From NCBI GenBank assembly GCA_937891165.1, contig CALAEX010000066.1:1242-65241 (forward strand): DNA of 64,000 nucleotides, given 5' to 3'. Of this stretch, positions 5,500 to 21,916 are shown in pieces. The first letter of the stretch is position 1. Every line of letters starts with the position of its first letter. The translations under genes were made by a program, and so were the position numbers. Below the pieces are notes generated by a model. It had not been told where the DNA came from. It saw nothing but the letters and a program-made list of their open reading frames with translations, and made no database searches. Origin of the DNA: an uncultured Lachnospiraceae bacterium (GTDB lineage: Bacteria; Bacillota; Clostridia; Lachnospirales; Lachnospiraceae).

Positions 5500-5582
5500 T
5501 TACTATTTAGCTTAATAAAAATTCTCTATCTCCCGAGAATCATCGAGAGATAGAGAAAATTAATTGTGCTAAATTCAATCCC
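5500..5582 (-). repeat. 85-nt rod-like conserved element, copy A (loop class agaatcat)
   Basis: Arms at 5522-5535 and 5544-5557 flank an 8-nt spacer at 5536-5543. Flanks: ttactatttagcttaataaaaa and aattaattgtgctaaattcaatccc. Confidence 0.9.
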
Positions 5583-5625
5583 GAAAAAGAAAATATCCAG
5601 TTGCAGGAATGACCTGCAACTGGAT
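5583..5625 (-). terminator. intrinsic terminator immediately upstream (on the - strand) of element A
   Basis: 13-bp stem atccagttgcagg/cctgcaactggat, followed on the - strand by attttcttttt. Confidence 0.6.
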
Positions 5626-5819
5626 TGTCTTTAATTGATATTTTTATTCAATAATATATAAGCATATTCCGAAAAACGAAATATTGGAATATTTATAGCG
5701 GATATTTTACCCACTTACTTTATTGTATTATTTTACTTACTTTTTAATATATAAAATATACCCCTTGAAAACATTATACTAAATTATTGAATAAAAATTA
5801 GAAAGGATGGTTTGCGATT

Positions 5820-7349
5820 ATGGATCATTCAGTACAGAATCCTGTTATTAATTTCATTGATGAAGTTAATAAACAGAATACTCTTAGTAATAGCTATGAC
5901 GCAATTAATAATGACCCTAATATTAAACTTCGCAGATTGGGCGAAACCAAACAGCAGGGTAAAGTGCTTTGTATGAATTCCATTTTGTCCAGACTCTGCA
6001 GCAATTCAATCCCAGAAATCAATGGGCGTGTTGCGAACACTCCGGATTTAGATAAAGTAGTACGTGATTATGTGGCAAGAAGAACTAATGGTCAGGATAT
6101 TGACTTTTATGTAAAAGAAGCTATTAAACGTAATCCAAAAAATACAGAAGCGATTAAGAATATTTATGAATCTGTAAGCAAAATTGTCAATGAGATGTAT
6201 ATCGAAAAAGAATTACATCCGGAAACTATTACAGATAATGACTATTCTTTTTCTCTTACACCGGAAGTTGATGATAAATTAACTGCTATTATTAGAGATA
6301 ATAACCTAGATAGTTTATCAGATGTTATCAAAGATAACGTAAGAAATAATGCAATCACTGAAGTAGAACTTGCAAAGAAAGAACGTGAAGATAGACTTGC
6401 TTTGGAAGAAGAGCTTATGAATGATGAGACCATTACTACAGAAGCTGCTTTGGAAGAAGCACTAAGAGTACGTGGATTAAATGAAAGAAAATTCTACACT
6501 CCTTCTTTATTTGAAGCGGTTATGAATTCTAAGTTTAAAGAAATGCCAGTTCTTGAAAGTATTGGTGATGTAGAATATGAATGCGAATCTGAGTATTTGA
6601 CAGAGGGTGTTCTTAAGAATATTGCGAATAAATTTACTGGTAATACAGAAGAAGCTGCAAAAGCTGCGATTGAAAAGAACCATACACAGTTCTTAGCAAC
6701 AATCGAAAAAATGTATACCGGAGTTTATTCTCAGTACCGTTCTAAAGTATCTCCAATCAATGTAGATTTAATTTCTAAATCTATTAAGAAAATTATGGCG
6801 GATTCTAGAGTTGGAAATGTAACTTACAAATCCAAAGTAAATATGTCAGAAGTGAAAGAAGCAGTTAGTAAATACAAAGAAAATACAAAAACTTTGTTTA
6901 CTGCTAAGAAATTGACAAAATTTGATGTACCTAAGAATAAGAAAGCTTATTCTGCAAATGATGCTGTAAGTGAAATGGTTAGTATTGTAAGTGCATTAGA
7001 TACATATTTTGCAAAACCGGATGTAAAATCATTCGTAAATAAAGCGAGTGCTTTTGTTACTGGTAAAGTAAGTAAATGCGATAATGCAAAAGATGTAAAC
7101 GTTACTTACAAATTAGCAATCGAATATTATATGGCAGAACTTGCTTACTATGCACAGGGTATTGAATTTGTAGCATCTGTTTCTGAATTTGCGAAAAAAC
7201 TTATGAGTAAATACAGTAATGATGCTGTAAAAGAAGCAGCTTTTGATAAAGCTATTGTAGAATATACAATGCTTAATATTTCAAAAGCATTATATCTTGA
7301 AAGCTTTAGCTTGATGGATTTACCGAATGTGATTAGAAGTTACGAATAA
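5820..7349 (+). CDS. hypothetical protein (509 aa)
   Basis: Long ORF with an AAAGGA RBS. No motif recognised. Confidence 0.75.
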   Translation: MDHSVQNPVINFIDEVNKQNTLSNSYDAINNDPNIKLRRLGETKQQGKVLCMNSILSRLCSNSIPEINGRVANTPDLDKVVRDYVARRTNGQDIDFYVKEAIKRNPKNTEAIKNIYESVSKIVNEMYIEKELHPETITDNDYSFSLTPEVDDKLTAIIRDNNLDSLSDVIKDNVRNNAITEVELAKKEREDRLALEEELMNDETITTEAALEEALRVRGLNERKFYTPSLFEAVMNSKFKEMPVLESIGDVEYECESEYLTEGVLKNIANKFTGNTEEAAKAAIEKNHTQFLATIEKMYTGVYSQYRSKVSPINVDLISKSIKKIMADSRVGNVTYKSKVNMSEVKEAVSKYKENTKTLFTAKKLTKFDVPKNKKAYSANDAVSEMVSIVSALDTYFAKPDVKSFVNKASAFVTGKVSKCDNAKDVNVTYKLAIEYYMAELAYYAQGIEFVASVSEFAKKLMSKYSNDAVKEAAFDKAIVEYTMLNISKALYLESFSLMDLPNVIRSYE

Positions 7350-7352
7350 ATA

Positions 7353-7392
7353 AAATATAGAGTAAGACTATTTCTAGTCTTACTCTATATTT
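7353..7392. terminator. bidirectional terminator
   Basis: Perfect 18-bp stem aaatatagagtaagacta/tagtcttactctatattt with a 4-nt loop, between convergent genes. Confidence 0.8.
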
Positions 7393-7395
7393 TAT

Positions 7396-7830
7396 TTAAT
7401 TTGAAGCTTGACCTGCTTTTTTACCACATGAGCATGTATATGTTATTTTTGTTTCACCAGATATTGTTTTATTACACGTCATTGTTTGAGATACATTGCC
7501 ATACCATTGTACCCACCAATCATATGGTTGAGCGGATACTACTTGACCACATTTACTACACACATGCCAACAATCATGTCCCTCATTCCAGGGAGATTTA
7601 TATTGATCTCCGTATAAATATGCGGTTCCTCCGCATGTAGTAGTCGTGGTTGTTGTTTTCTTAGTTGTGAAACATCCCCCAGAGACTGTCGATTCATAAC
7701 TATCTGCCAAAGAAATATCTGGCATATTATTGGCAGGATTAATATGCCAGTGTTTAAAAGGATAGAATGTACTACTTACATAGAATCCATAATGTGAATC
7801 TTTTTTAGCAAATTTCAGTCCTCCGAGGTT
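7396..7830 (-). CDS. Cys-rich small protein downstream of element copy B; start unresolved
   Basis: The frame is open from the element (7830) to the stop at 7396 (145 codons). The only in-frame ATG (7725) has no RBS. Contains several C-pairs (CSKCG, CSCG) and a Thr7 run. Confidence 0.55.
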   Translation of the reverse strand, partial: NLGGLKFAKKDSHYGFYVSSTFYPFKHWHINPANNMPDISLADSYESTVSGGCFTTKKTTTTTTTCGGTAYLYGDQYKSPWNEGHDCWHVCSKCGQVVSAQPYDWWVQWYGNVSQTMTCNKTISGETKITYTCSCGKKAGQASN

Positions 7831-7914
7831 ACTATTTAGCTTAATAAAAATTCTCTATCTCCCGATAAATACCGAGAGATAGAGAAAATTAATTGTGCTA
7901 AATTCAATCCCCCC
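7828..7914 (-). repeat. 85-nt rod-like conserved element, copy B (loop class ataaatac)
   Basis: Arms at 7851-7864 and 7873-7886, spacer at 7865-7872. Shares an extra ~60 nt with copy E on the high-coordinate side. Confidence 0.9.
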
Positions 7915-7944
7915 AAAAGTAACCGTAAAGTAGTTTCTCTCAAT

Positions 7945-7954
7945 GATATATAAT
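7945..7954 (+). promoter_or_regulatory. promoter-like motif variant GATATATAAT
   Basis: Member of the GATATATTAT motif family, 66 nt upstream of the ATG at 8020. Confidence 0.4.
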
Positions 7955-7968
7955 TTTCGTGAATCAAA

Positions 7969-8022
7969 GTAAATATTTTAATGGGTGGAGATAATAATAT
8001 CAAGAGCCTGGAGGTAATTATG
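7969..8022 (+). repeat. ~50-nt translation-initiation module, copy 2
   Basis: See 3092-3142. Confidence 0.8.
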
Positions 8023-8400
8023 AATAAAAAGATTAGAAGAATGAAAAAAGAAATTAAACGTTGGTTGAAATATACTAGCATAATTAAATTTATAGATGAG
8101 TCTGATTATGAAATTGGACTGTCTAATGATGGTGGGGGTTATATTTATTGGACAACGTACAAGTATATACCCCAAATCAAAAAATTCGAAGTTAGTTACG
8201 GTTGCAGCTCTAGTTTTGAATACTGTCCAGTATGTGGGTCATTCAGTGATCACTATGTCAATGAAAGATTTGATGAGGTGGATATTTATGGCTCAGGATT
8301 CACATGTGGTGCATTTAAATTAATTTCATTTAATGAGATGGCTGTATCTGCAATACGTAATATGACAAATCATGAGAAAGTGGAATTATACTATCAGTAA
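8020..8400 (+). CDS. hypothetical protein with CxxC motif
   Basis: ATG follows GGAGGTAATT. Contains CPVCGSF. The track start at 7981 is in frame but has no RBS. Confidence 0.7.
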   Translation: MNKKIRRMKKEIKRWLKYTSIIKFIDESDYEIGLSNDGGGYIYWTTYKYIPQIKKFEVSYGCSSSFEYCPVCGSFSDHYVNERFDEVDIYGSGFTCGAFKLISFNEMAVSAIRNMTNHEKVELYYQ

Positions 8401-8431
8401 AGAAGAAGTTAAAAACTTCTTCTTTTTTTTA
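8401..8431 (+). terminator. intrinsic terminator
   Basis: agaagaagtt-aaa-aacttcttct followed by T8. Confidence 0.8.
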
Positions 8432-8498
8432 TTTTTTAGGCTTCATTTTCAACCCTTCTATTAACATCAAAATAACTTAATGAAGGGAGACGTAAACT

Positions 8499-9352
8499 AT
8501 GGCTAAAAAAGCAGTAGATACCCTCTTGGATATGGATACTCTAGTTCAAGAGGAAACAAGTAAAGTTCATAGAAAAACAATTGGACTTGTAGATGCATTA
8601 CGAGTAGATGATACAAAGAATAACTATTTTGATTGCAATGCATCTGTAGTAACTTATAAAACAGGATTCCCACAATTAGATTATTATTTGGGATATAAAA
8701 TTAATGTATATGATGATGATAATAATATCATAGATTCATATCCATCAATTGGTATTCCTGGTGGTTCCATTATTACATTTATTGGAAAACCATCCACCAG
8801 TAAAACAACTACAGCAGTACAGGTTGCTGCTAATATCGTTAGAGAATTTGAAAATGGATTCGTTATTCATTATGACCTTGAACAAGCACAGAATTACTCG
8901 AGAGTTCAAAACTTAACTAAATTTTCAATGAGTGATTTAAAAGCTGGTAAATATATTCTCAGACAGGAAAGAAACACTGTAGGAGATATTAAAAGTTCTA
9001 TCGTGAAGATTTGGAAAAAGAAAATCGACAATCCGGATATTTATAAATATAATTCGGGTAAGAAAAATGAATTCGGTGAAGATATTATTTTATATGAACC
9101 AACAGTCGTAATTCTCGATTCCATTGCTACACTTAGTACAGGTTTGAATGAAAATGATAAAAAAGACTTAGCTAAGATGGAAGAAGTAGGAAGTCAAACA
9201 GAAAGAATGAGAATTACTGGAGAAATTGGTAGATTCTTTAATGAAGTATTGCCATATCTTCGTGAAGCGAATATTATTCTTATCTGTATTAACCAGATTA
9301 AAGATAAACCACAATTGGGATTCTGCCCTGAACCATCAGAAATCCTTTATTT
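8499..9352 (+). CDS. RecA-family recombinase, exon 1 of 2
   Basis: Walker A GKPSTSKTT, Walker B VVILDSIATL, then ILICINQIKDKP (compare RecA IFINQIR). The track tail 9353-9377 is read-through into the intron. The 3' boundary is tentative. Confidence 0.75.
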
Positions 9353-10631
9353 AGCACAAAATGAGTCCTTAGTTTAGAAGTAAATATACTATTTAATTTA
9401 TTTATAAACGAATAAATAAATTAATATAAATTTACTGGTGAGGACCTATATAGTAATATATAGAAAATAAACCTTCTTAATTGCTGGAAACTCTCGATAT
9501 GTTGTTAGTACAGTAAAGTGTGACAATCTAACAAATAGAGACAATCAGCAGCCAAGACCAATTATGTAAATTTGTATTAAAATAAATTAGGAGATAAATC
9601 AATATGAATTTACGAGAAAAATTATATGAAATTGGTATGACATATGATGAATTAGATAGAAATTCATTACCATATGAAGTATTTATTCCTATGGATACAT
9701 CATTATACCCCATCATACCAAAGAATAAATTTATGATAAGTAATAAAGGAAGAATTTATGATTGTCATAAAAAAGAATTTAAGAAAATTTCATTACCGAA
9801 AAATGAAGATACTAGCGTATCATACTATACAGTAAATATTGGAGATGAAAAATATTTAGTCCACCGATTAATGCTGTCATCGTTCGAACACCTCGGTGAT
9901 ATCGAATTAATGAAGACACTCCATGTTGATCATAAAGATGGTAATAAACACAATAATGAACTGTATAATTTACGCTGGGCTACAAATAAAGAAAACACAA
10001 TTTATGCAAGAGATTTAGGATTATTAAATCCTAGACGTGGTGAAACACATCCATGTGCTACTATAACTGAGAAGCAAGCACGGGAAATATGTGAATTACT
10101 ATCTACAGGAAAATATTCAAAATCTCAAATTTCTAAAATGCTAAATGTACCATACGATGCTGTTTGTGGTATTTATATGGGTGTATCATGGGTTTGGATT
10201 TCGAAAGATTATAATGTTCAAAATAAACTAATAAAAGGATCTGGTTATCCAAAAGTTTTTACATTTGATCAATTACATATGATATGTAAATATTTTTCTG
10301 AAAATAAAAAACCCGATGATATGAGTGTTAGAAAATATTGTTTGAATACATTACATAGTATAGGTTATGATGAAAATATTATAACAGAGGGTGTATTGAA
10401 TGGTGTTCGAAGTATATATAATAAAAAACGGTATATCGAAATAACTTCTCAATATAATTGGTAAGGTTCAACGACTATCGAAAGGGTAGCTTAGTAAAAT
10501 AAGTGAGTAACCGAGTAGAGTAGGATACATATATCCGAAATGGAAGGCTCCTTATAGTTTATAATGAATTATAAGGATGAAGATATAGTCTGAACTATAT
10601 AGAGATATATAGATTAACATAATTAACCAGG
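9353..10631 (+). mobile_element. group I intron 1 (IA2-like) carrying an HNH homing endonuclease gene
   Basis: 5' core cttaattgctggaaactc...gacaatcagcagccaagacc (9476-9558). 3' core gttcaacGACTATcgaaa (P7 5' at 10473-10478) and agatATAGTCtga (P7 3' at 10585-10590). Candidate P1: exon tttattt (9346-9352) with gaataaa (9410-9416). Boundaries are accurate only to within a few nt. Confidence 0.8.
9604..10464 (+). CDS. intron-encoded HNH homing endonuclease
   Basis: HVDHKDGNKHNNELYNLRWATNKEN is an HNH motif. AGGAG RBS. Lies entirely inside intron 1. Confidence 0.85.
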   Translation: MNLREKLYEIGMTYDELDRNSLPYEVFIPMDTSLYPIIPKNKFMISNKGRIYDCHKKEFKKISLPKNEDTSVSYYTVNIGDEKYLVHRLMLSSFEHLGDIELMKTLHVDHKDGNKHNNELYNLRWATNKENTIYARDLGLLNPRRGETHPCATITEKQAREICELLSTGKYSKSQISKMLNVPYDAVCGIYMGVSWVWISKDYNVQNKLIKGSGYPKVFTFDQLHMICKYFSENKKPDDMSVRKYCLNTLHSIGYDENIITEGVLNGVRSIYNKKRYIEITSQYNW

Positions 10632-11058
10632 AGGAAAAAGTCCGCAGTTCAACGCAAGTGTATTGCTGAAATTTATTGCAGTCGGTAGTGCTAAATATGA
10701 ATTAGAAGATGATGGTTTTGATGGATTTGGTGTTAAGGTTATGATTATTAAATCCAGAGGAAATCAGGCAGGTAGATTTGTAAATTTAATTTACGATAAA
10801 GTAAGAGGTATTGACCCCATTCGTTCAAGTATTGCATTTGCAAAAGAACTTGGACTTACAGGGGGAAATAAAAATAGTTTTTATTTCAACTCTCATAAAG
10901 AAGAGAAATTCTCGTTGAAGAATGTAAATCAGGAGTTTAGAGAAAGAAGACATTTATTCAAGATTATGTTTGATAATATCAGACCAGTACTTGAAAGTAA
11001 ATTATCTATGTTAACTCCGGATGAATTAGAACCAGTTGATGAAGCTATGGATTACTAA
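10632..11058 (+). CDS. RecA-family recombinase, exon 2 of 2
   Basis: The frame is open from 10627. GKSPQFNASVLLKF aligns with RecA GGNALKFYASVRL. The joined ORF 8499..9352+10632..11058 is 1281 nt and in frame. The track Met at 10663 is an artefact. Confidence 0.7.
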
Positions 11059-11087
11059 GATTTTTGTAAAAGAATCTAAATTTTAGT

Positions 11088-11097
11088 AATATATTAT
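11088..11097 (+). promoter_or_regulatory. promoter-like motif AATATATTAT
   Basis: Motif family member upstream of 11196. Confidence 0.35.
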
Positions 11098-11195
11098 TAT
11101 ATTGAATATATGTGAGTAGAGAATGATTATCTCTACTCGCATTATTTATTTTTATAAACTATTTATTATATTCTAAAGAAAGGAGGTCTTAAATT

Positions 11196-12233: not shown

Positions 12234-12245
12234 ACTATTTGCTTA

Positions 12246-12344: not shown

Positions 12345-12374
12345 TTATTTGGAATAAAATGAAAGGAGACTAAC

Positions 12375-13622
12375 ATGAAAGAGAAGTACAATCTTAAAGA
12401 TGCCCTAAGAGCGTGTGACCTAGAATATCTGGATGACCGTTCTATAGAGGGTAAAGGAATGCTTACAACACCGCAGTATATCAATAGTATGCGAAGTGTT
12501 ATGTTTGCATCGCATTTAAACCAGTTTAAGAATATGGTACAACCAGATTTTCCTCAGTTCTTTACTGGTGGTGAAAATGTGGTTGGTAAGTATTCGGACG
12601 GTTATTTGAAACTTAACGAATCTACTGTATATAGAAAAATTGTTAAGTTTGAAGGATTAGTAGAAAATCCGACCGTATATGTTTTGTTTGTGTATAACAA
12701 AGTAAAGAAACGATTTGAAGTTATTAGACGAAAACCGAATGAAGACTTAATTGAAGTATTTGGATATAAATACGATAATACAGTCATTGACTCCTTTAAA
12801 GAAGGAGATGAAATTAGTGAAGACACTATAGCATTTAAGTCTACTTCCTATGATGAAAGTATGAACTATTCGTATGGGCGAGATGTCATCACACAGTTAT
12901 CTTTTGAACCGTTTACATCAGAAGATGCAGCTATCGTATCAGAAGAAATTCAAGACCTTCTTAGAAATGTAGAGGTTGAAGAAAATATTGCTACATTGAA
13001 TGAGAATGATTTTCCTCTTAATATTTATGGAGACGACTTAGAGTATAAAACATTTCCAGATATCGGGGAATTTTCTAAAGGTATCATTATGGCTACTAGA
13101 AGAAAATTTAATAATCAGGTCTTGTTTGATTTTAAAGAAGATATGCTTAGTAAAGTAACAGACACCGATACTAGATATTATCTGAATGGTAAAGTTGTTG
13201 ATATTGAGATTTATTGTAATAACGAGGATTTACAGGATAACTCATTTTATCATCAGATTTATAACTATTGGTGTTATCAGAATGCTTACTATAAAGATAT
13301 TAAAAGAACTTGTGAAGAGATTATGAATTCAGGAGAAGACTACACAAGGGATATTGATTATCTTTATAAACAAGCATGTTACATGTTAGACCTTAAAAAG
13401 AAATGGAAAGAAAAAGACAATGCTTTCTCCAATGTGCAAGTACATATCCTTGTGGAGAGAGAAATACCATTAGCAGTAGGACAGAAAATTTCGGGTCGTT
13501 ATGGAAATAAATCGGTAATATCTGATATTCGTAAGAAAGAAGATATGCCATTCTATTATGATGCTAATGGTAATAAAGTTCATGTACAGCTTATACTATC
13601 AGTGCTAGCTATTATAAACCGT
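12375..13622 (+). CDS. RNA polymerase beta subunit C-terminal half, exon 1 of 4
   Basis: SMRSVMFASHLNQ (compare NRALMGANMQRQ). GQKISGRYGNKSVISDI (compare GDKxAGRHGNKGVxS). Ends at ...LAIINR (compare PSRMN). 5' splice site: P1 aaaccgT (13616-13622) with Gcggttt (13633-13639). Confidence 0.9.
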
Positions 13623-14762
13623 AAACTGTTGTGCGGTTTTAAAACCTCTTTAATTGCTGGGAACTCTTTAATTAGACAATCAGCAGCCAAGACCTTAAAA
13701 TTATAGAAATAAATAATAAAAGGAGTGATCGATATAAAAAATATCATAGATATGTTATATCATGATGAAAAATGGAGAAAGATAAGATATAAAAATATTT
13801 GTAAAGATATATACGAAATTAGTTCATACGGTCGTGTAAGAAAAATTTCAAATAAAAGAATCTTATCATCTGCAATGGCTCCAAATGGTTACTTACGTAT
13901 AAACTTAATAATAGATGAATTTATAGAAAATAGTAATGAACATAAAAGGAATGCATTTTCAATTCATGTTTTAGTATTTACACATTTTTGTGATAAAAAT
14001 GATGTTGAAACATATTTGATTGGTAATTTATTTGAACGGAGATATGTTGTTAATCATAAAGATGGTAATAAGACAAATAATTATTATGATAATCTTGAAT
14101 TAATGACATATTCGGAAAATAATAAACATGCTTCAAAATTAGGGTTGATGCCTAAAGGAGAAAATAAACCAAATTCTCCAAGTTGGGTTACAAATGAATT
14201 AGTTGAAAAAATTTGTAAAATGCTAGATAAGGGCGAACCTAATTGGCGTATTATTCAGACACTTGAATTGCCAAATACGAAATATACAAATACATTGATA
14301 TCTCATATTTATTCAAAACAAGGTTGGGAATTTATATCAGAAAAATATAATTTCTATAATTCAAATTCTAAGTTTAAACGAAGTACTACATATTCATTAG
14401 AAATGATTACTTATATATGTAAACTATTGGAACATGGATATTCTAATAGAGATATAGCAGATATAGTCTGTAATAAATTCGAAATGGGTAAAGATAAAAT
14501 ACATGCTATACGAATAATCGTATCACGTATTAGAAATAAACAAAAATATATAGATATTAGTAAAAACTATAATTTTTAAGGTAAGGTTCAACGACTATCG
14601 AACACATAGCTTGAGAGAAATGCTTAAGTGAATAAGTAAGTAGAGTAGGAGAAATCCGAAACGGGAGGTAATGCATATCTGGTAATAGGATATGCTTTAA
14701 AGATATAGTCTGAACTATATAGGAATATATAGAAGTATTTATATACGTTAACAAAAGCAATG
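13623..14762 (+). mobile_element. group I intron 2 (IA2-like, subtype A) carrying an HNH homing endonuclease gene
   Basis: P1 as above. P10: ctgttgt (13626-13632) with 3' exon acaacag (14763-14769), 7 bp. Core: taaaacctctttaattgctgggaactctttaattagacaatcagcagcc, gttcaacGACTATcgaa, ccgaaacgggagg, agatATAGTCtga. The omega G is 14762. Confidence 0.9.
13725..14579 (+). CDS. intron-encoded HNH homing endonuclease
   Basis: VVNHKDGNKTNNYYDNLELMTYSENNKHA is an HNH motif. N-terminus has EKWRKI...YEISSYGRVRK. GTG start after AAAGGAG. Confidence 0.85.
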   Translation: MIDIKNIIDMLYHDEKWRKIRYKNICKDIYEISSYGRVRKISNKRILSSAMAPNGYLRINLIIDEFIENSNEHKRNAFSIHVLVFTHFCDKNDVETYLIGNLFERRYVVNHKDGNKTNNYYDNLELMTYSENNKHASKLGLMPKGENKPNSPSWVTNELVEKICKMLDKGEPNWRIIQTLELPNTKYTNTLISHIYSKQGWEFISEKYNFYNSNSKFKRSTTYSLEMITYICKLLEHGYSNRDIADIVCNKFEMGKDKIHAIRIIVSRIRNKQKYIDISKNYNF

Positions 14763-15287
14763 ACAACAGCAGCCGTTATTGGGGAATTGGCTACGAACTT
14801 TATTGGAAAACGAGTTAGTGCTCATATGAAGACTCTTAAGACTATGAAAGAAAAAGAGAAAATATTATTTGATGTTCTTAAGATGTACAATGTTGCCTAT
14901 TGTGAATTCTTGACTAAGAAATATAAAGCAATGACTACAGAGGAGAAGAAGAACTTTTTACAGTACTGCGAAGATGTTAAGATTCACTTTAATCAACCAT
15001 CTATGGGTGAAAAAGAACCTATGTTTTATCGTATTATGAATCTGAAGGAAAAATATAAAGATATTTTGAATCCAGATGAAATGTGGGTTCATCAGTTTGG
15101 TAGAGATATCCGTTGTGTTATGGATGGATATATTGCCAATATGTATATTATTACTCTGAAACAAACAGCGAAGAAAGGTTTCTCAGTAAGAGGAATTGGT
15201 GCTGTTAGTGCTAAGGGTATACCGGAAAGAAGTTATAAATCAAAATCTCATAAAGATTTATATTCATCAACCGCTATTAGATTCGGT
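14763..15287 (+). CDS. RNA polymerase beta C-half, exon 2 of 4
   Basis: Begins TTAAVIGELATNFIG (compare NIGQILETHLG) and ends ...AIRFG. 525 nt, in frame. The Met at 14760 in the track is intron sequence. Confidence 0.88.
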
Positions 15288-15511
15288 GACCGAATTTGCC
15301 GAAGTAAAACTTCTTTAATTGCTGGGAACTCTTTAATTAGACAATCAGCAGCGAAGCTTAGAAATAAGAACGTTCAACGACTAGCTCTAGTAGCGTAGGA
15401 CTTAATAAAAACTCTTTAAGTTCGAAACAAGAAGCATTTAATTATGAAGATATAGTCTGATACTTATAGGAATATAAGAGAGTAAATTCGTAAGAATTAT
15501 AAACGTAATAG
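15288..15511 (+). mobile_element. group I intron 3 (subtype B, no ORF)
   Basis: P1: ttcggT (15282-15287) with Gccgaa (15298-15303). P10: gaattt (15292-15297) with 3' exon gaattc (15512-15517). Core: gttcaacGACTAgct...tagcgtagga...ttcgaaa...gaagatATAGTCtgatac. Close paralog of intron 8. Confidence 0.88.
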
Positions 15512-15526
15512 GAATTCGAAACGCTT
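15512..15526 (+). CDS. RNA polymerase beta C-half, 15-nt micro-exon (EFETL); 3' end tentative
   Basis: RFG|EFE restores the universal beta RFGEME motif. The last 6 nt, acgctt, pair with gggcgt (15534-15539) as P1 of intron 4. Confidence 0.6.
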
Positions 15527-15772
15527 AGAAATTGGGCGTCATACACAGAGATGTGTATTGCTTAAACCTCTTTAATTGCTGGAACCTCTTTAAGTAGACA
15601 ATCAGCAGCGAAGTTCGAAAGGAAACGTTCAACGACTATCGAAAGACTATTGAAAAATAGAATCGAGTAGAGTAGGAGAAATCCGAAACGGGAGGTATCT
15701 GTAAAAGATAAAGATATAGTCTGGCTATATATGAAAATATATAGGTTAATTAGCAATTTCTGTATTGCAATG
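15527..15772 (+). mobile_element. group I intron 4 (subtype A, no ORF)
   Basis: Full core (ttaaacctctttaattgctggaacc..gacaatcagcagcg..gttcaacGACTATcgaaag..ccgaaacgggagg..agatATAGTCtgg). Candidate P1 at 15521-15526/15534-15539, P2 hairpin atacac/gtgtat (15541-15558). 3' end gcaatG|cag matches intron 2 (gcaatG|aca). The 5' boundary is less certain than the 3' boundary. Confidence 0.75.
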
Positions 15773-16300
15773 CAGCCAGAAGAAGTTGCATTAATCCATG
15801 CATTTTACCGCACTTCAGTAAAAGCACGAAGAGACTTTGGTAAAGCCTTACTTAATAATGAACCTATTATTACAGTAGGAAAAACTTATGAATCCAGAGT
15901 AGCTGAGTTCTTCGAAATCATTTTAAAATCGTTAGGATTTAGATTAGAATTCTTAGATTCTGATGATGATTTTGTAGAACTTAGTGTAGATGATTTACAG
16001 TGGTTTGAATTAGCAAATGGTAAATCAGTATTCTGTTCTGAGTATGATAAATATATTATTGATCGTAGAAATGAGATTGGTGCTGAAATCTTAGAAGAAT
16101 ATGGTGCATTAAATATTGATGAATTGAATGAGATGATTGATGACGAAATTAAAGACAGACAGTATTTTATTGCTAGTGATATAAAAGACGTTTATTTGAA
16201 TTGCGTTGAAATTGAACCTACATTAGTGAGCAGAGATATTGTATCTTGTGAAGAGATTTCTAGTCAGTTAGAATTAATTGACGTTCCGGTGGAAGTTTAA
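15773..16300 (+). CDS. RNA polymerase beta C-half, exon 4 of 4
   Basis: QPEEVALIHAFY... (compare EMEVWALEAYG / EMERDCLIAHGA). ESRVAEFFEIILKSLGF (compare PESFKVLIKELQSLG). The joined 4-exon ORF is 2316 nt and in frame. Confidence 0.85.
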   Translation, partial: QPEEVALIHAFYRTSVKARRDFGKALLNNEPIITVGKTYESRVAEFFEIILKSLGFRLEFLDSDDDFVELSVDDLQWFELANGKSVFCSEYDKYIIDRRNEIGAEILEEYGALNIDELNEMIDDEIKDRQYFIASDIKDVYLNCVEIEPTLVSRDIVSCEEISSQLELIDVPVEV

Positions 16301-16360
16301 ATGAAATTGGGTAATGAACTATTTATGTTCATTACCCATATTTTTTACTCGAAAAATAAT

Positions 16361-16370
16361 GATATATTAT
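16361..16370 (+). promoter_or_regulatory. promoter-like motif GATATATTAT
   Basis: Lies 42 nt upstream of 16412. Confidence 0.4.
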
Positions 16371-16411
16371 ATTATTAGAAATAATCATAATTAGAAAGGA
16401 GAACGAAAGAT

Positions 16412-16675
16412 ATGGTTATTATAAGTAATAAGAAGTTTAAGAAAATGCAGACAACAAATTTAGTTGTTGGGTGTACTGGTATTGGTATGGGTGTAATTGG
16501 AGTGGGTCTTGGAACAGCATCTTTAATTAAAGATTCTGTAAATAAGAAAAAGACAAATTCTGATATAGATCTAATTCAGCAACATATCAATGCTTTAGAA
16601 AGAGCAAGTAAGAAAACTTGTAAAGAGGTCGCAGTAATTCAGGAAACTTTAATGGGAAATGGGTTATTAAGATAA
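16412..16675 (+). CDS. small membrane protein (one Gly-rich TM segment)
   Basis: AAAGGAG RBS. VVGCTGIGMGVIGVGLGTASLI is a hydrophobic span. Confidence 0.7.
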   Translation: MVIISNKKFKKMQTTNLVVGCTGIGMGVIGVGLGTASLIKDSVNKKKTNSDIDLIQQHINALERASKKTCKEVAVIQETLMGNGLLR

Positions 16676-16681
16676 AAGTTT

Positions 16682-16709
16682 GGGAATAGTAATATTCCCT
16701 TTCTTTTTT
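16682..16709 (+). terminator. intrinsic terminator
   Basis: gggaata-gtaa-tattccc followed by tttctttttt. Confidence 0.7.
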
Positions 16710-16856
16710 ATTAAAAAATATATAAGAGAGTACAAAAATATAAGAATTTTAGATTCTATAAATATACCAAGATAATTAGCAATTACGCAATTATTTCTTT
16801 TGCATAACAGTACAAACTTTAGTTGTACGTCTCTTAGTAGTAGAATGTAAGTGTTC

Positions 16857-16897
16857 TAAAAAGTCCCCTAACCATGAATGTGGTTAGGGGACTTTTA
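16857..16897. terminator. bidirectional terminator
   Basis: 13-bp stem agtcccctaacca/tggttaggggact flanked by A-run and T-run. Confidence 0.75.
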
Positions 16898-16947
16898 TAG
16901 AGTAGATGTAAAATTTACTCTTATTTTTTGTATATGAAATAGTTAAA

Positions 16948-17268
16948 TTACACTACTGATAAACTTGGAGTGACTTTAGCTTTATTAGTTACACCAGTTA
17001 CAGCGTATTTTGCGTGTAAATATAAATCATTACTTGAGATTGACGCAGTTCCATTAGCTATTGATATTACAATAGAACCAGTGAGTTTAGCAGCACCTTG
17101 GTCTGCGTATATATGATTATCACCAACATGAGCATAGCTCGATGATGTAATACTTATAGTTAAACTACAACTAGCTTTACTACTAAAATTTAGTACTGAA
17201 TCAGCACCTGCACTATTCACAAAATGTAATTTTCCATCAGTTCCTACATATGTTTTCACCTTACTCAC
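16948..17268 (-). CDS. small protein of the KTYVGxDGKLHFVN family, downstream of element copy C
   Basis: GTG start abuts the element. The first ~75 nt are nearly identical to 21354-21827, after which the sequences diverge completely. Confidence 0.7.
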   Translation of the reverse strand: MSKVKTYVGTDGKLHFVNSAGADSVLNFSSKASCSLTISITSSSYAHVGDNHIYADQGAAKLTGSIVISIANGTASISSNDLYLHAKYAVTGVTNKAKVTPSLSVV

Positions 17269-17355
17269 GTTACTATTTAGTTAAATAAGATTTCTCTATC
17301 TCCCGTGTTTTACCGAGAGATAGAGAAAATTAATTGTGCTAAATTCAATCCCCCT
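17269..17355 (-). repeat. 85-nt rod-like conserved element, copy C (loop class tgttttac; degenerate lower stem)
   Basis: Arms at 17292-17305 and 17314-17327, spacer at 17306-17313. Confidence 0.9.
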
Positions 17356-17401
17356 AAAAAACAAAAATAAAAAACAAAAAGTGAGAAAAGAAAACGAATA
17401 T

Positions 17402-17737
17402 TTAAACCCATACAGTACCAGATAATGATGATGAATTTTCCCACCATTGGTCTGGTAAAGCCGAATTGTATAGATAATCTCCACTCTCATTAGTTAATAT
17501 AACACTCACATGTTGCCATATAGGATTTGATGGGTTACCGCCTACAGATCTTGTTACATAAAAATTCACTGGATGTGTTTTATCACTACCAGCAGCGACA
17601 CCAGCGTTATATCTATTAGTATAAATATTTTGTATACTAGTTACTATAGCTGCGGGAGTTTTTGCACTAGGGGTTGACCCACATGATTTGCATTTATTAT
17701 ATATTGAATCAACCCCAGTTTGAAAAGACGAGAGGTT
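17402..17737 (-). CDS. small protein downstream of element copy D, with no canonical start codon
   Basis: 112 codons are open from the element to the TAA (17404-17402): NLSSFQTGVDSIYNKCKSCG...SGTVWV. There is no in-frame ATG or TTG, and the first GTG is about codon 62. Absent from the ORF track. Confidence 0.55.
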   Translation of the reverse strand, partial: NLSSFQTGVDSIYNKCKSCGSTPSAKTPAAIVTSIQNIYTNRYNAGVAAGSDKTHPVNFYVTRSVGGNPSNPIWQHVSVILTNESGDYLYNSALPDQWWENSSSLSGTVWV

Positions 17738-17819
17738 ACTATTTAGCTTAATAAAAATTCTCTATCTCCCGAGAATCATCGAGAGATAGAGAAAATTAAT
17801 TGTGCTAAATTCAATCCCC
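17735..17819 (-). repeat. 85-nt rod-like conserved element, copy D (loop class agaatcat)
   Basis: Arms at 17758-17771 and 17780-17793, spacer at 17772-17779. Confidence 0.9.
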
Positions 17820-17928
17820 AAGTCTCTCCCGTACTACTAAAACCTCAGGTAATAGTGTAATCTTCTTAAAAAATAAAAGTATATAATTCTACTGTACAAG
17901 GTGCTTGTACATATGGTGATTGAAATAC

Positions 17929-17953
17929 GGCACCTTCGTGCTTTATTTTTTTG
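17929..17953 (+). terminator. weak terminator or attenuator hairpin in the leader of 18003
   Basis: ggcac-cttc-gtgct followed by ttattttttt. Overlaps alternative pairings at 17893-17911 and 17898-17904/17930-17936. Confidence 0.35.
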
Positions 17954-18002
17954 TATTTATAATCAAAACAACTACTTAAATAGTCAGATTTGAAAGGAAG
18001 AG

Positions 18003-18281
18003 ATGATTATGAATAAAATTAACACATTGAAGCTTGCTATTCATGAAGCTCATGCAGAAAACATTATCAGTTCAGATAAAAGAGATTCTATGTTAACTTT
18101 TTGCGAATCTGTAGATTTAGAAAATGCAGAAGATTATGATAAGTTTATGGAAATGACCCAGGAACTTATCAATATTGCAGAAGCTAAGAAAACAAATGAA
18201 CTTAAGCTTACTATTTTTGAAAGTGAAGCTTGCGGTGATATTACTGCAGAAGAAAGAGAAGAATTACTTAAAATGCTTTAA
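18003..18281 (+). CDS. hypothetical small protein
   Basis: AAAGGAAG RBS and an ORF of 92 aa. Confidence 0.7.
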   Translation: MIMNKINTLKLAIHEAHAENIISSDKRDSMLTFCESVDLENAEDYDKFMEMTQELINIAEAKKTNELKLTIFESEACGDITAEEREELLKML

Positions 18282-18298
18282 GTAGAACAAAATATAAT

Positions 18299-18340
18299 CC
18301 AGATACAGATTAATTTCTGTATCTGGAAATTTGTTTTTTT
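18299..18340. terminator. terminator between convergent genes
   Basis: ccagatacag-8 nt loop-ctgtatctgg followed by aaatttgttttttt. Confidence 0.7.
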
Positions 18341-18950
18341 AGAAATAGTCTCTTACTGTATTTTTAAAGATATTAACCATAACATCCGGTAAATTATGTT
18401 TTTTAGCATTAATTTCAACACCCTTTTCAAATGGTGTATCGGATACCAAACTACTAGCATAACAGTCACAGAAATATTCGAAGAAATCTACGATATTCAT
18501 ATCAGCAAGTCCATTTTCGAAATGCTCTGGATGATGACGGTTTACTTCATAATGATGAGATAAACATTCATCCATCATATCTTTTCTAATTTTATTATAT
18601 TCTGGCGTACCGTATTTCGCAGTTCTAAGAAGAGGAATAAATTTGTCATATCCTTCTTTCTCAGGTTTTTCTAACTTACTTTTGTCATGGTCATTCATTC
18701 TAACCTGCAATGCCTCAATTAAAGGAAGCATTACATTAAAAATATTATTTTTATGAATCATAGTATCTGAATATGAATCATAAGATTTTTCTTCTGGTAA
18801 ACTCATTGGTTTAGTTCCTCCTGTATATAAAATTGATTCTGGTTTATAATTACTTTCATCCCAAAAAGTAATTATTTGACCATTTACTATAGTTTTTGTT
18901 TTAATTAATTTTAAGGATTTCCCTATTCTATAATTTCTATCAATCTTCAA
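18339..18950 (-). CDS. hypothetical protein (HD/DUF5662-like histidine cluster)
   Basis: TTG start overlaps the upstream gene end. Contains HHYEVNRHHPEHF. Confidence 0.6.
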   Translation of the reverse strand: MKIDRNYRIGKSLKLIKTKTIVNGQIITFWDESNYKPESILYTGGTKPMSLPEEKSYDSYSDTMIHKNNIFNVMLPLIEALQVRMNDHDKSKLEKPEKEGYDKFIPLLRTAKYGTPEYNKIRKDMMDECLSHHYEVNRHHPEHFENGLADMNIVDFFEYFCDCYASSLVSDTPFEKGVEINAKKHNLPDVMVNIFKNTVRDYF

Positions 18951-19293
18951 AATTACCCACTTTCAATTTTTCAATATCATCTTTCATCTTTTGTAAATCA
19001 CTTAATTTCTTTTGATGATTTGTAAGTAATAATTGAACCGTTTCATGTTTCTTAACCATTTCTTTTATTGGTAAATACAATTGTTTGTATTTCTCTTCAC
19101 CAAATTCTCGTTTGATAAACTCAATAATGGTGTTAGTTTCGATAAATAAATTTATCACCATGCTTTCTAAAGCCAAATCTGTTTGGACTAAGTTTTTAAG
19201 ATTTTCCAATTCTTCCATTCGTTCATCCATTTCAGATTCAATTTCTTCCATCAATTTAGAATCAATATCTTTATTCTTACTAAATAAACCCAT
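18940..19293 (-). CDS. hypothetical coiled-coil protein
   Basis: AAAGGAG RBS and an ORF of 117 aa. Confidence 0.7.
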   Translation of the reverse strand: MGLFSKNKDIDSKLMEEIESEMDERMEELENLKNLVQTDLALESMVINLFIETNTIIEFIKREFGEEKYKQLYLPIKEMVKKHETVQLLLTNHQKKLSDLQKMKDDIEKLKVGNFED

Positions 19294-19350
19294 TAATTAT
19301 CTCCTTTCTTTATTTATAAACTTAACTATTAGTTAAAATCATAATAGAAA

Positions 19351-19797
19351 GTGATGATAATAATTATGAATAATGAACGATATTTTGCTATGTTTGATTT
19401 TATTCTTCATAAGAGAATCATTCCTCTTATTGCAGAAAAAGTGGATATACTATTTGAGACAGATAAATATTTTACGCATTATTATAAAGATGAATTCGAT
19501 TGTGGTGAGTATATAACAAGACCGATATTAGATTTGACTGAATTCGCCCTTCCTATATTGGCGATAGTTATTTATGAAGTAGACACAAAAGAATTTATCG
19601 ATAGATTTCATTCCGACATTATCCAAATAAATCCAATCAATTTCTTTGGATGGTTGAAAGAGTATATGATGGAAGAATATATTTTAGTGAAAGCCATGAA
19701 TAGAGATGGTATTATAATGACGTTTTGGGCTACAATAAACTTAGATTATCCTGCAATTGTGAGAGAAGGTTATGAATATATATTCGGAGATAAATAA
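19351..19797 (+). CDS. hypothetical protein
   Basis: ORF of 148 aa. The start may be the ATG at 19366. Confidence 0.65.
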   Translation: MMIIIMNNERYFAMFDFILHKRIIPLIAEKVDILFETDKYFTHYYKDEFDCGEYITRPILDLTEFALPILAIVIYEVDTKEFIDRFHSDIIQINPINFFGWLKEYMMEEYILVKAMNRDGIIMTFWATINLDYPAIVREGYEYIFGDK

Positions 19798-19799
19798 AT

Positions 19800-19827
19800 C
19801 CATTGGGAATTTGTATGTTCCCAATGG
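19800..19827. terminator. hairpin between convergent genes
   Basis: ccattgggaa-8 nt loop-ttcccaatgg. Confidence 0.55.
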
Positions 19828-19833
19828 ATGTTC

Positions 19834-20553
19834 TTATGCCCAGTAAGTAGATTTTCTTTCTAAATGGAAAATATCATCCCATTCTTTTAAGATTTCTTTT
19901 CTTTCATTTATAGAATCTGCCCAATCATCAATTTTTAAATTAATTCTTCCATGTGCAGTTTCTAATTCATTATAGTGTTTGATAATTCCATAGAGAGCTT
20001 TCTTACAATCAATAATTGCTAAGTTTTTAAATGTCTCTTCTTGAGACATTGGAATACTGGATAAATCTTTGTTGTGAAGTTTTGCATATTTACAAAACAT
20101 ACTTCCACCATAATAATGATACAGTCTTACTGTATTTGGAGAAAAGAATTCAAATGTTGGTTTTGGAAAAGCCATATTTGTTAAATCCGCTCCAATATTG
20201 GTGAATAATAAATCTCCTATCATGTTAGGGTTTGCTATTGGCATACCAGCACCATAATAACCAATTCCACTGATATCCGAAGCATCGTAATAAATATCTT
20301 CGATAAATACAATTTCTTGCCCTGGTGGAACTGATAATTTAATATCAGCATACTCTATATTTTGAATACCTTTTTCTATACTTGTATCAGAAATTCTAAT
20401 TGTTTCATACTGAGGAAAATATTGTGAATAGGTTCTTAATGTAGTTTCTTTAATCACTCTTGCTAATGTTCCATCAACATCGTCAAGAGGCAAAGCTACT
20501 GCATAGATACCCAATTCCATTTTTACGTTAAAGAGTAAATTAGATATATTCAT
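19834..20553 (-). CDS. hypothetical protein (239 aa), possibly structural
   Basis: Long ORF with an AGGGTAGG RBS. Confidence 0.7.
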   Translation of the reverse strand: MNISNLLFNVKMELGIYAVALPLDDVDGTLARVIKETTLRTYSQYFPQYETIRISDTSIEKGIQNIEYADIKLSVPPGQEIVFIEDIYYDASDISGIGYYGAGMPIANPNMIGDLLFTNIGADLTNMAFPKPTFEFFSPNTVRLYHYYGGSMFCKYAKLHNKDLSSIPMSQEETFKNLAIIDCKKALYGIIKHYNELETAHGRINLKIDDWADSINERKEILKEWDDIFHLERKSTYWA

Positions 20554-20702
20554 ACATTACACCTACCCTTTCTGTCATTACTAAAATGTTTTCTAGTGGT
20601 AAATATAATAAAGTATATAAAGAATAACGTTTTAGTAAGATGAAGTATATCTATAAAAATTCCAAAGCGTATCTTAATCTTTAAGCCAATGGTTTAAAAA
20701 GT

Positions 20703-20744
20703 GGACTAGCTACAAAAGTAGCTAGTCCTTCTTTCTTTTCTTTT
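20703..20744. terminator. bidirectional terminator
   Basis: ggactagctac-aaaa-gtagctagtcc with A-run and T-run on either side. Confidence 0.75.
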
Positions 20745-21168
20745 AATATACAAGATAAATTTCTAATGAGTTGCAATATGCAGATACTATATAGGCATTT
20801 GTTTCACTTCCACCTGGGCTTCCTAAATTATATGTAAATACACCTGTTGATGTATTATATGAATACGATGCTGTTGCATTGAATGTATATGTGGTAGTTT
20901 CGGTTAATGCATGAAAGTAACAAATATACATACTCAAATATGATTTTAATGGTCTGAATAAGAAATTATTTTTTGTAAGTGAAGAATAAATATTTGGGTA
21001 TGATGATTTTATATTTACAGTACCAGAATACTTACTTCCACTATATACTTTGACTATAGTAGCTCCACCACTACTAAAATTTAGTACTGTATCAGCACCT
21101 GCCTTATTTACGAAGTGTAGTTTACCATCACTACCTACATAGGTCTTTATTTTAGAAGTATCATCAAG
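20743..21168 (-). CDS. third KTYVGxDGKLHFVN-family paralog, lacking both leader element and start codon
   Basis: The frame is open from 21213 to 20743. ...DDTSKIKTYVGSDGKLHFVNKAGADTVLNFSSGG... is conserved with 16948-17268 and 21354-21827. The first canonical start (TTG at 20937) lies after the conserved module. Sits directly after a terminator. Confidence 0.45.
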   Translation of the reverse strand, partial: LDDTSKIKTYVGSDGKLHFVNKAGADTVLNFSSGGATIVKVYSGSKYSGTVNIKSSYPNIYSSLTKNNFLFRPLKSYLSMYICYFHALTETTTYTFNATASYSYNTSTGVFTYNLGSPGGSETNAYIVSAYCNSLEIYLVY

Positions 21169-21185
21169 ATATATATTATTATAGA

Positions 21186-21215
21186 TAAAAAAGAAACATC
21201 TGCTAAGATGTTTCT
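21186..21215 (-). terminator. intrinsic terminator of 21354-21827
   Basis: agaaacatct-gcta-agatgtttct, followed on the - strand by T6. Confidence 0.75.
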
Positions 21216-21353
21216 ATAAAACTTTACAACTTATTATAACCAATTATAAATTCTATCAATCTTCTCTATTAATAGGTTATAATATATGATTGAAAAAAGT
21301 CTATCCTATCAAAATATCACCACTAGGGTATTATACCCTAGTGGTTTAATATT

Positions 21354-21827
21354 TTAACCTACTTTTATTAGAAGTACCATACATAACAAACATCCACCAC
21401 AATTATCATTTGTATGTGGTTTTATAGTATCGTTTTTATTTACATTAAATTCTTTTATCACAAGATTAGTTCCATCTGCTCCATATTGACCCAATGCATC
21501 TGACGCATATATAGTACTATTATTTATAATAATTCCGTATTGTGAAACACTACCACTATATCTTTGATATTGGTCAACATATAATTTTAACCTCATATTA
21601 TTTTTAACAGTTAGTGTATATCCATCGCTTCCAAGTGTAAATAGTTCTGTGTTGTACTCTTTAGGTGGTTTGGAAGGATATAACCCATCTGCAGTTTTAG
21701 CATACCAAAATGATGCTATTTTATGTGCACTACTACCACTACTAAAATTTAGCGCTGTATCAGCACCTGCACTATTCACAAAATGTAATTTTCCATCAGT
21801 TCCTACATATGTTTTCACCTTACTCAC
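21354..21827 (-). CDS. small protein of the KTYVGxDGKLHFVN family, downstream of element copy E
   Basis: GTG start abuts the element. MSKVKTYVGTDGKLHFVNSAGAD... Confidence 0.7.
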   Translation of the reverse strand: MSKVKTYVGTDGKLHFVNSAGADTALNFSSGSSAHKIASFWYAKTADGLYPSKPPKEYNTELFTLGSDGYTLTVKNNMRLKLYVDQYQRYSGSVSQYGIIINNSTIYASDALGQYGADGTNLVIKEFNVNKNDTIKPHTNDNCGGCLLCMVLLIKVG

Positions 21828-21916
21828 GTTACTATTTAGCTTAATAAAAATTCTCTATCTCCCGATAAATACCGAGAGATAGAGAAAATTAATTGTGCTA
21901 AATTCAATCCCCCCCC
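21828..21916 (-). repeat. 85-nt rod-like conserved element, copy E (loop class ataaatac)
   Basis: Arms at 21851-21864 and 21873-21886, spacer at 21865-21872. C8 run at the high-coordinate end. Confidence 0.9.

Follow-up and report, generated by a model that had tools for sequence, protein, structure and literature searches.

A 64,000-nucleotide (nt) stretch assembled from an uncultured Lachnospiraceae bacterium (GenBank assembly GCA_937891165.1, contig CALAEX010000066.1, positions 1,242 to 65,241; hereafter, the window), which by its gene content derives from an uncultured AR9-like jumbo phage, carries five copies of a rod-like palindromic element of about 85 nt. Each copy lies at the 5' edge of a short minus-strand reading frame. 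We propose that the element probably heads a silent fibre-tip cassette, that its two ends serve as recombination linkers, and that its middle acts as an insulator composed of a terminator and stop codons. Specifically, the cassette would be a 5'-truncated, promoter-less, and usually start-less module for the C-terminal, lectin- or adhesin-like tip of a fibre. The last 11–12 nt of the element (CTA AAT AGT AAN, reading L-N-S-N/K) copy the conserved codons linking an N-terminal module (N-module) to the tip in full-length fibre genes and would supply the right-hand crossover point. The G-rich tract and the 5' arm would supply the left-hand one. In related phages, an expression module consisting of a promoter region, a Shine-Dalgarno (SD) sequence, an ATG, and about 370 codons fills exactly the interval from 5' arm to junction, replacing the hairpin core. 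Exchange at both ends would set the expression module before another tip; one crossover between a pair of junctions would bring a downstream tip to the module. The notion is that the central 14–16 bp hairpin, its U-tract, and stops in three frames insulate an unexpressed cassette from upstream transcription and translation. The window phage's own expression module would lie outside the 64-kb window. A preliminary description had interpreted the element chiefly as an RNA feature, a view that is partly supported.

Five palindromic rods and the frames they head

Coordinates are positions in the window, and the element is read on the minus strand. Reading of the sequence and a three-block pattern search of the window (three or fewer mismatches) give exactly five copies, all on the minus strand; dinucleotide shuffles predict 0.00–0.26 matches to the element blocks. 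Copy A (5500–5582) consists of a G3 run, the 5' arm, a hairpin at 5522–5557, the 3' arm, and the junction CTAAATAGTAA at 5500–5510. Copy B spans 7828–7914 (G6 run, hairpin 7851–7886, junction 7829–7839), copy C 17269–17355 (G5 run, hairpin 17292–17327, junction 17270–17280), copy D 17735–17819 (G4 run, hairpin 17758–17793, junction 17736–17746), and copy E 21828–21916 (G8 run, hairpin 21851–21886, junction 21829–21839), with E identical to B over 83/83 nt. Coordinates, fold, and block searches agree with the initial account of five rods in one orientation, and its G-run lengths of 3, 6, 5, 4, and 8 and its loop classes (A and D alike, B and E alike, C unique) are confirmed. The 23-nt 5' arm GATTGAATTTAGCACAATTAATT and the 14-nt stem halves TTCTCTATCTCTCG and CGGGAGATAGAGAA are invariant in all five copies. 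The 3' arm is the same in four; in copy C it bears four uncompensated substitutions, and an in-frame TAA stands immediately 5' of CTA AAT AGT. Every copy folds as a rod, with a minimum free energy of -26.8 to -38.5 kcal/mol (z -5.1 to -8.6) that no shuffle equals. In each, the hairpin followed by TTTTTATT is scored terminator-like on the minus strand by a terminator scan (15–16 pairs, 6 GC), as its appearance had suggested, and the hairpin presumably terminates transcription.

The preliminary description could place the element in no RNA class, and searching bears this out: Rfam returns nothing at the elements at gathering thresholds, and relaxed thresholds return hairpin noise (E>0.4), the best score being 23 bits against a 70-bit cutoff (E 0.65). 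One of its candidate roles, a terminator combined with a promoter insulator, comes close in its terminator and insulator part; the promoter part does not stand. A scan finds no qualifying sigma-70 promoter inside the elements, and a manual candidate, TTGAAT-17-CTCTAT, matches 2/6 positions at the -10 box. The early and late promoter motifs of phage AR9 are published (PMC5312081). Neither the AR9-type early motif (AAATATATATTAT-N6-G) nor the late one (AACA-N6-TA/G) lies in the element, although both are conserved at other sites in the window, and no AR9-type late promoter was found before any of the five window copies. Several further candidates were rejected. No upstream reading frame is conserved across the rod, stops closing all frames. 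The stops in all frames and the lack of an upstream open reading frame (ORF) speak against bypassing of the gene-60 kind, against readthrough or recoding of stop codons, and against a split intein (N|S, N|C). ARAGORN finds no transfer-messenger RNA that could offer a resume codon, the hairpin lacks the domain V features of a group II intron, and the Rfam group I intron matches lie elsewhere, on the plus strand. The exact pattern of the window element has no match in IMG/VR, the JGI metagenomes, or the GTDB genomes except one of 23 nt in Actinobacillus seminis (NZ_NLFK01000003.1; 7817–7839 of our contig L001), an intergenic identity to the 5' arm with no hairpin after it, which we judge to be chance. 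A blastn search of the element against cultured phages gives no match.

The frame ..CTA AAT AGT AAN.. runs in the same phase out of all five copies and stays open for 108–159 codons, and an in-frame stop lies at most seven codons 5' of the junction in every copy. All of these frames are on the minus strand. Cassette A (5172–5504; SKVKSLIEGG.., 110 codons) has GTG directly after the junction and, 10 codons past that GTG, an in-frame ATG with an SD-like GAAGGCGGA. Cassette B (7396–7833; SNLGGLKFAKKDSHYGFYV.., 145 codons) has its first canonical start 36 codons in, and cassette D (17402–17740; SNLSSFQTGVDSIYNKCKSCG.., 112 codons) has its first 57 codons in. Cassette C covers 16948–17274 (SNVSKVKTYVGTDGKLHFVNSAGAD.., 108 codons). 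Cassette E (21354–21833, 159 codons) matches C over its first 90 nt (87/90) and is unique in its remainder. A sixth paralogue, cassette F (20743–21165; ..LDDTSKIKTYVGSDGKLHF..), has no rod and no canonical start. A plain terminator (21192–21215) stands before it, and an early-like promoter motif (21279–21288) also lies on its 5' side. The differences between F and cassettes C and E are mostly synonymous. Because B and D lack a start for 36 and 57 codons, and because the start-less F diverges synonymously, the frames are coding sequences, but not ordinary genes. Of the earlier claim that the element marks the edge of small genes, the position and phase hold; the "genes" themselves look like 5'-truncated fibre-tip cassettes, many of them start-less. 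Those called in the window from GTG, TTG, or a later ATG are probably not independent genes. Terminator-like hairpins found by the scan (strand not assigned) close cassettes A (5131–5162), B (7350–7395), E (21319–21345), and F (20703–20728). A separate one lies just 5' of element A on the minus strand (5595–5625), with an early-promoter-like TATATATTAT at 5651–5660 further upstream.

Comparison among the cassettes suggests exchange at the element. Copies B and E have an upstream flank in common (7915–7975 and 21920–21980, minus strand, 93% identical). Copy E is a chimera: its flank and element are those of B, the first 90 nt of its ORF are those of C, and the switch falls inside the 12-nt junction; cassette E switches a second time at ..LNFSSG. 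We read this common flank joined to a C-like ORF start as mosaic evidence of exchange at the element. Longer proteins also contain these modules. Tip E shares 85% identity with the C-terminal part of P0002, a protein of 234 aa that has a 75-aa N-terminal part and the junction ..VIKTLNDS; its junction codons, ATT AAG ACG CTA AAT GAT AGT, resemble the window 3' arm, TTT ATT AAG CTA AAT AGT. The beginning of cassette F matches the internal junction QLNDDTSKIKTYVG of the 259-aa protein P0018, and P0011, P0015, P0018, and P0022 have in their interior the KTYVGTDGKLHF module found in cassettes C, E, and F.

Elements, junctions, and natural variants in related phages

The protein of the flanking gene at 5820–7349 has 58%-identical homologues on 275–279 kb IMG/VR contigs, and those loci carry homologous elements; pattern scans and look-ups of proteins yielded further copies. 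In all, the element occurs in four lineages of uncultured AR9-like jumbo phages and has the same length in each. The L002 type reads ..ACGGAATTTAGTTAAGTAAGTTTTCTGTAAGTCTCG-loop-CGRGACTTACAGATTCTTTATTTAGCTAAATAGTAA and the K type ..GAACCAATTTTGTTAAGTTAACTTTCTCTATCTATCG-loop-CGAGGATTACAGAAATCTTACTTAACAAAACTGCAACC. The fourth lineage, drawn from ENA (L159–L161), is nearest to the window. Relatives harbor from 5 to over 34 elements per genome, with at least 34, in both orientations, in one 275-kb genome, and the element evolves in concert within genomes. Thirty representatives, taken from 68 distinct cores of all four lineages, align over 86 columns without gaps. Columns 9–39 and 48–78 form a symmetric palindrome that is 82% paired, versus 30–47% with the pairing slid. 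The preliminary description had looked to related phages for further copies and for covariation, and both are present: 10 palindrome pairs change on both sides between sequences.

These alignments bear on the possibility that the element is an RNase III-type processing site or a stand-alone small RNA. The rod is a long imperfect duplex of the kind found at T7 RNase III sites. Moreover, the asymmetric stem pair reported earlier (a G:U wobble in the minus-strand reading, C:A in the plus-strand one) is real and extends to a bias in the central stem of 67 homologues, where sense-strand G:T outnumbers A:C 73 to 16. Over the whole rod, however, G:T and A:C are balanced (115 vs 119), Rfam offers no match, and start-less in-phase frames and DNA-level breakpoints would be left unexplained. 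We find an RNA function of this type scarcely credible.

The phase rule reported for the window is general. Across 74 distinct copies, the in-phase frame is open in every one (medians of 112–183 codons by lineage), versus a stop after a median of 2–8 codons in the other two frames. The 68 complete frames range from 48 to 250 codons; 42 lack any ATG, GTG, or TTG in their first 20 codons, and four lack one throughout. No long ORF runs into the element from upstream at any copy. Immediately before (L/I/Q)N(S/C)N, L002-type elements have TAG; K-type elements, like window copy C, have TAA, and the remaining window copies have AAG.

Full-length fibre genes explain what the junction encodes. The 626-aa fibre gene of L002 reads ..QIDT-LNSN-MSSYLPLSGG, with CTAAATAGTAAT in frame. 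Because the full-length gene reads LNSN at that point, the element-terminal 11 nt are ordinary in-frame codons there. In the K lineage, the fibre gene reads ..QIDE-LNCN.., matching that lineage's element end, CAA AAC TGC AAC. L002-type cassettes contain HxH boxes, SYLPLSGGTLTG, PVRQGGG, and a bulb-lectin-like motif, which we take to be marks of fibres; B_lectin and H_lectin matches are sub-threshold (E ~0.004–0.005). A protein search with the N-module retrieves homologues, one of them named a tail fiber protein; some carry Phage_fiber_2, Peptidase_S74, H_lectin, or head-fibre domains (PF03406, PF13884, PF09458, and PF11133). Downstream of some L002-type cassettes lies another gene, which has a normal SD and ATG. 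Two L002-type tips (L002 3584–3668 and 4708–4792; 3630–4115 and 4754–5368) end in ..LSGTTLTITI; behind each come a 94%-identical junction and a further gene of this kind, for which no family match was found. These second genes may encode tip-specific assembly chaperones.

A concrete link between rods and full-length genes comes from near-identical genomes. All evidence for N-module switching stems from these metagenomic relatives rather than from the window phage. Genomes L002 and L003 are 99.99% identical except at one place, where 51 nt in L003 correspond to 1633 bp in L002. The L003 stretch comprises an element's hairpin core and the greater part of its 3' arm. A small divergent gene and a promoter region lie in the 1633 bp, together with an SD, an ATG, and the 374 codons that open the 626-aa gene. 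The 5' arm of the element is still present in L002, where it borders this module on the left. No N-module was found in the L003 contig. Tip X, which follows the module in L002, is rod-headed in a third genome with one single-nucleotide polymorphism in 19.9 kb, and one contig starts exactly 11 nt 5' of tip X. L005 carries this 1633-bp module at 100% identity, but there the 11 nt lead into another tip, tip Y (KNYPPTWTF..). The right flank of L005, at least 5.7 kb, is 100% identical to the sequence behind the rod in L023, L057, L064, and L079, and the 279-kb contig of L002 carries a rod-headed tip Y 16.5 kb downstream in the same orientation. From this flank match and the position of tip Y, L005 looks like the product of a crossover between two direct junction copies. 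The flank of this partial contig fits crossover or deletion rather than patch conversion. An assembly chimera is an unlikely source of the join because only 11 nt are shared, far too few.

The K lineage presents a parallel case. The left border of its full-length gene retains the G-run and the 5' arm. The HQIYY tip is rod-headed in L118, where the N-module stands one cassette further on; in L162, the N-module occupies the space that separates the junction of this tip from the 5' arm. N-module relatives found by the protein search, at 66–95% identity, carry at least eight different tips after ..LN(S/C)(N/K). Natural variants with breakpoints at both ends of the element are present in two lineages of relatives and within the window. 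At the left border of the N-module (L002 13947–14010; L118 1995–2040; L162 25–90), the 5' arm ends at GTTAAGTA, and about 20 nt later (..AAACAAAAC..) a second GTTAAGTAA follows, a direct repeat kept in two lineages. A putative "mini-rod" 5' of the full-length gene in L158 was discarded; its alignment score of 42 is not above that of shuffles (33.6 +/- 4.5).

The same variants help to weigh two explanations that dispense with cassette use. In one, fragments of fibre genes were duplicated along with the element, which is a plain intrinsic terminator, and recombination at it is the passive by-product of any dispersed repeat in a highly recombinogenic phage. The terminator-like hairpin and U-tract, the abundance of such terminators in this genome (they close most window genes; the scan found 50 versus 6 expected), the concerted evolution of the element, and a precedent in T4-like phages described below are consistent with this idea. 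Yet a terminator has no need of 31-bp palindromic arms that covary across lineages, nor of a 3' end that tracks each lineage's own fibre junction codons (LNSN vs LNCN). Two lineages whose N-modules share 65% identity also both retain the 5' arm at the module's left border, and start-less frames that remain open in all 74 copies imply selection through use. We regard a plain terminator as quite improbable. In the other explanation, the element is a selfish, non-autonomous palindromic mobile element (MITE-/PATE-like) that inserts at the fibre junction and truncates genes. It is indeed palindromic, multicopy, and present in both orientations within a genome; its G-run varies at one border, and it always abuts ..TTAC on the opposite strand. 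However, neither a transposase or HUH/Y1 gene nor a target duplication was seen. Insertion also predicts an upstream N-terminal part, yet no long ORF enters any element, and the truncated frames are intact, unlike those expected of parasitic disruption. A small mobile palindrome, as the preliminary description had ventured, comes close to what we find. The selfish version is disfavored by the intact frames, and we deem it very improbable.

Proposed silent cassettes, stand-alone expression, and known systems

The main rival to silence is stand-alone expression from the element. In this alternative, the rod is the 5' leader of small virion proteins that express themselves: folding would bring the G-tract, acting as an SD sequence, to the first codon after AGTAAN as a split ribosome-binding site, or the rod would be a regulated attenuator or operator, and N-terminal fusions would be occasional. 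The G-rich tract often holds GGAG or GGGGG, and an early-promoter-like motif lies upstream of copy A. GTG or ATG directly follows the junction in 3/5 window copies and in 3/14 complete L002-type copies, above chance. In L159 and L160, GTG or TTG stands directly before (L/I)NSN and is used by gene callers. Against such leaders, 42/68 complete frames are start-less over their first 20 codons and 4 wholly so, and the L002 and K lineages have TAG or TAA where L160 has TTG. Normal window genes have a strong AGAAAGGAG Shine-Dalgarno sequence, then ATG. In sister genomes, the same frames are continuous with a 370-codon N-module, and the dense arrays leave no space for promoters. A translational operator, one of the roles first suggested, likewise leaves the start-less frames and the DNA-level variants unexplained. 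We consider self-expression unlikely.

Several observations nonetheless weigh against silent cassettes. The silence itself is deduced from missing start codons and promoters, and the GTG directly after the junction of window cassettes A, C, and E, together with the called starts of L159 and L160, means that some cassettes could be translated on their own. Neither an N-module nor a full-length partner gene was found within the 64-kb window. Fibre identity, of tail or head, is argued from motifs, sub-threshold lectin matches, and the Pfam domains of homologues; above threshold, neither the N-module nor the tips match an entry of Pfam, PHROG, NCBIfam, or PDB. In the K lineage, an imperfect hairpin is followed by a weak U-tract, so the conserved function cannot be termination, and copy C has lost outer-stem pairing without compensation. 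The sequence shared on the right-hand side, 10–12 nt, is short for ordinary homologous recombination, and no recombinase is present among the ~30 window proteins scanned. Finally, the resolved switch in L005 resembles a 16.5-kb deletion that would remove conserved genes, and this variant may be defective.

By analogy of mechanism, the closest known counterpart is the PeSL linker. PeSL cassettes of T4-like phages are short multicopy intergenic motifs with a terminator stem-loop and sometimes poly-G, located at module borders as linkers where close phages differ by insertion, deletion, or replacement; they contain a strong early promoter of the sigma-70 type, and the ORFans beside them are complete and express themselves (Arbiol et al. 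2010, PMC2839356; Comeau et al. 2014, PMC4122927). The element has a comparable stem-loop terminator and has breakpoints of insertion, deletion, and replacement between close relatives within the motif. It differs in having no sigma-70 promoter, in being a palindrome with ~31-bp arms, in a 3' end that consists of in-frame fibre codons, in heading 5'-truncated cassettes, and in belonging to an AR9-like clade.

Cellular silent-cassette systems offer a second likeness. Neisseria pilE/pilS, Borrelia vlsE, and yeast MAT/HML/HMR each combine promoter-less, 5'-truncated cassettes that selection keeps open with one expression context that provides promoter and N-terminus, and they copy the donor by gene conversion so that the donor is retained. 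Here, too, there are multiple promoter-less, truncated open frames (74 copies), and one expression module is joined to different cassettes in near-identical genomes of relatives (N-X, N-Y, rod-X, and rod-Y, and likewise in the K lineage). In contrast, the resolved variants replace or delete single-copy cassettes and the expression module appears to move. Each cassette also has a dedicated palindromic head, and the system is viral.

Site-specific systems resemble the element in part. Mu G/Gin, P1 C/Cin, and the R64 shufflon have inverted sites, a neighbouring recombinase, and 2–7 segments in one locus. Like these, the cassettes are start-less C-terminal segments joined in phase at a short conserved coding crossover. 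Unlike these, they lack inverted flanking sites (the five window copies share one orientation, and the variants are not inversions), and 5 to over 34 of them are dispersed around the genome, with no recombinase among the window proteins. Integron attC sites are imperfect palindromes with conserved ends, a variable centre, and crossover at the 3' end, and they accompany whole-gene cassettes promoted from outside. The element shares with attC an imperfect palindrome directly 5' of the cassette frame, a 3'-end crossover, and an external promoter. It lacks the RYYYAAC/GTTRRRY cores: its ends are GATTGAAT.. and ..AAATAGTAAC, whose reverse, GTTACTA, does not fit GTTRRRY. No integrase domain occurs among the ~30 window proteins, and the cassettes are gene fragments. 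Tetart and colleagues are said to have reported in 1998 that T-even distal tail-fibre genes recombine at conserved motifs, between expressed genes of different phages. Both cases swap adhesin specificity at short conserved coding motifs; the T-even exchange, unlike that at the element, proceeds without a silent-cassette reservoir or palindromic head.

If the element does head silent tips, the long palindrome or the G-run may stimulate recombination, and a change of host range could be the outcome. Uncultured AR9-like jumbo phages would carry their own stock of receptor-binding tips (one 275-kb genome has at least 34 cassettes) and a simple DNA grammar (5' arm, hairpin or expression module, junction codons) by which any tip could be installed behind one shaft. 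With such a library, phages would have a third means of varying their host range, in addition to invertase switches and diversity-generating retroelements, and it would offer a natural design for modular fibre-tip engineering. It would also account for metagenome assemblies that break at these sites. We found no description of a silent-cassette fibre system in phages in the literature. A bolder hypothesis, which we advance only tentatively and hold to be doubtful, is that tip switching is programmed and frequent, with the hairpin or cruciform, perhaps with the G-tract, triggering a break or template switch that moves a single promoter and N-module among dozens of silent cassettes. If so, the system would be a viral counterpart of antigenic variation and mating-type switching and would involve recombination sites of a new type and perhaps an enzyme of its own.

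The host phage and other features of the window

The AR9-like assignment draws on a split multisubunit RNA polymerase (RNAP) beta-like gene, for which the nearest cultured relatives are AR9, PBS1, and Staphylococcus and Listeria jumbo phages at ~35% amino acid identity. The window is ~30% G+C. An AACA-N6-TA late motif precedes many window genes, with sites at 4371, 5770, 8463, 17967, and 23365 on the plus strand and 20579 on the minus strand, and in this phage it is extended to ACCNCTNGAAAACA. Early motifs of the GATATATTAT type are also recognizable, at 16361, 39584, 41899, 46014, and 51600 on the plus strand and at 39530, 21279, and 5651 on the minus strand. The AR9 promoter motifs are kept although the RNAP beta-like protein is only ~35% identical to that of AR9. 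An 87%-identical leader occurs at 21979–22055 and 39599–39675, and partially near 2990–3060. This repeat (..CTAAATAGYGCTCYGTAAATATAAATAATCGGAGGCGGAAC..) precedes plus-strand genes at 22084, 39723, and 3104, contains a small CTCCG/CGGAG hairpin, and opens with a CTAAATAG string that resembles the element junction.

The window has an unusually dense load of introns. Four Rfam group I introns lie on the plus strand (15268–15479, 15516–15743, 46914–47229, and 48295–48506), as do further intron-like repeats at ~9469–9560, 10461–10530, 13608–13694, 14581–14668, 47103–47180, 47529–47616, and 48025–48232. Some adjoin HNH/NUMOD4 ORFs (9604–10464 and 13725–14579), in and around the split RNAP beta-like gene (12375–13706). 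A tRNA-Val at 23262–23334 on the plus strand has the anticodon AAC, which is unusual for bacteria and phages. It is followed by a plus-strand ORF of 2959 aa (23387–32266) with Peptidase_C39-like and phage tail lysozyme domains near its C-terminus; the product is probably an injected or tape-measure-like virion protein. Finally, a 21-nt tandem repeat, TCCTGTGCCTGTGCTCGGGTT, is present in ~3.5 copies at 63541–63614, inside the minus-strand ORF 63021–63905.

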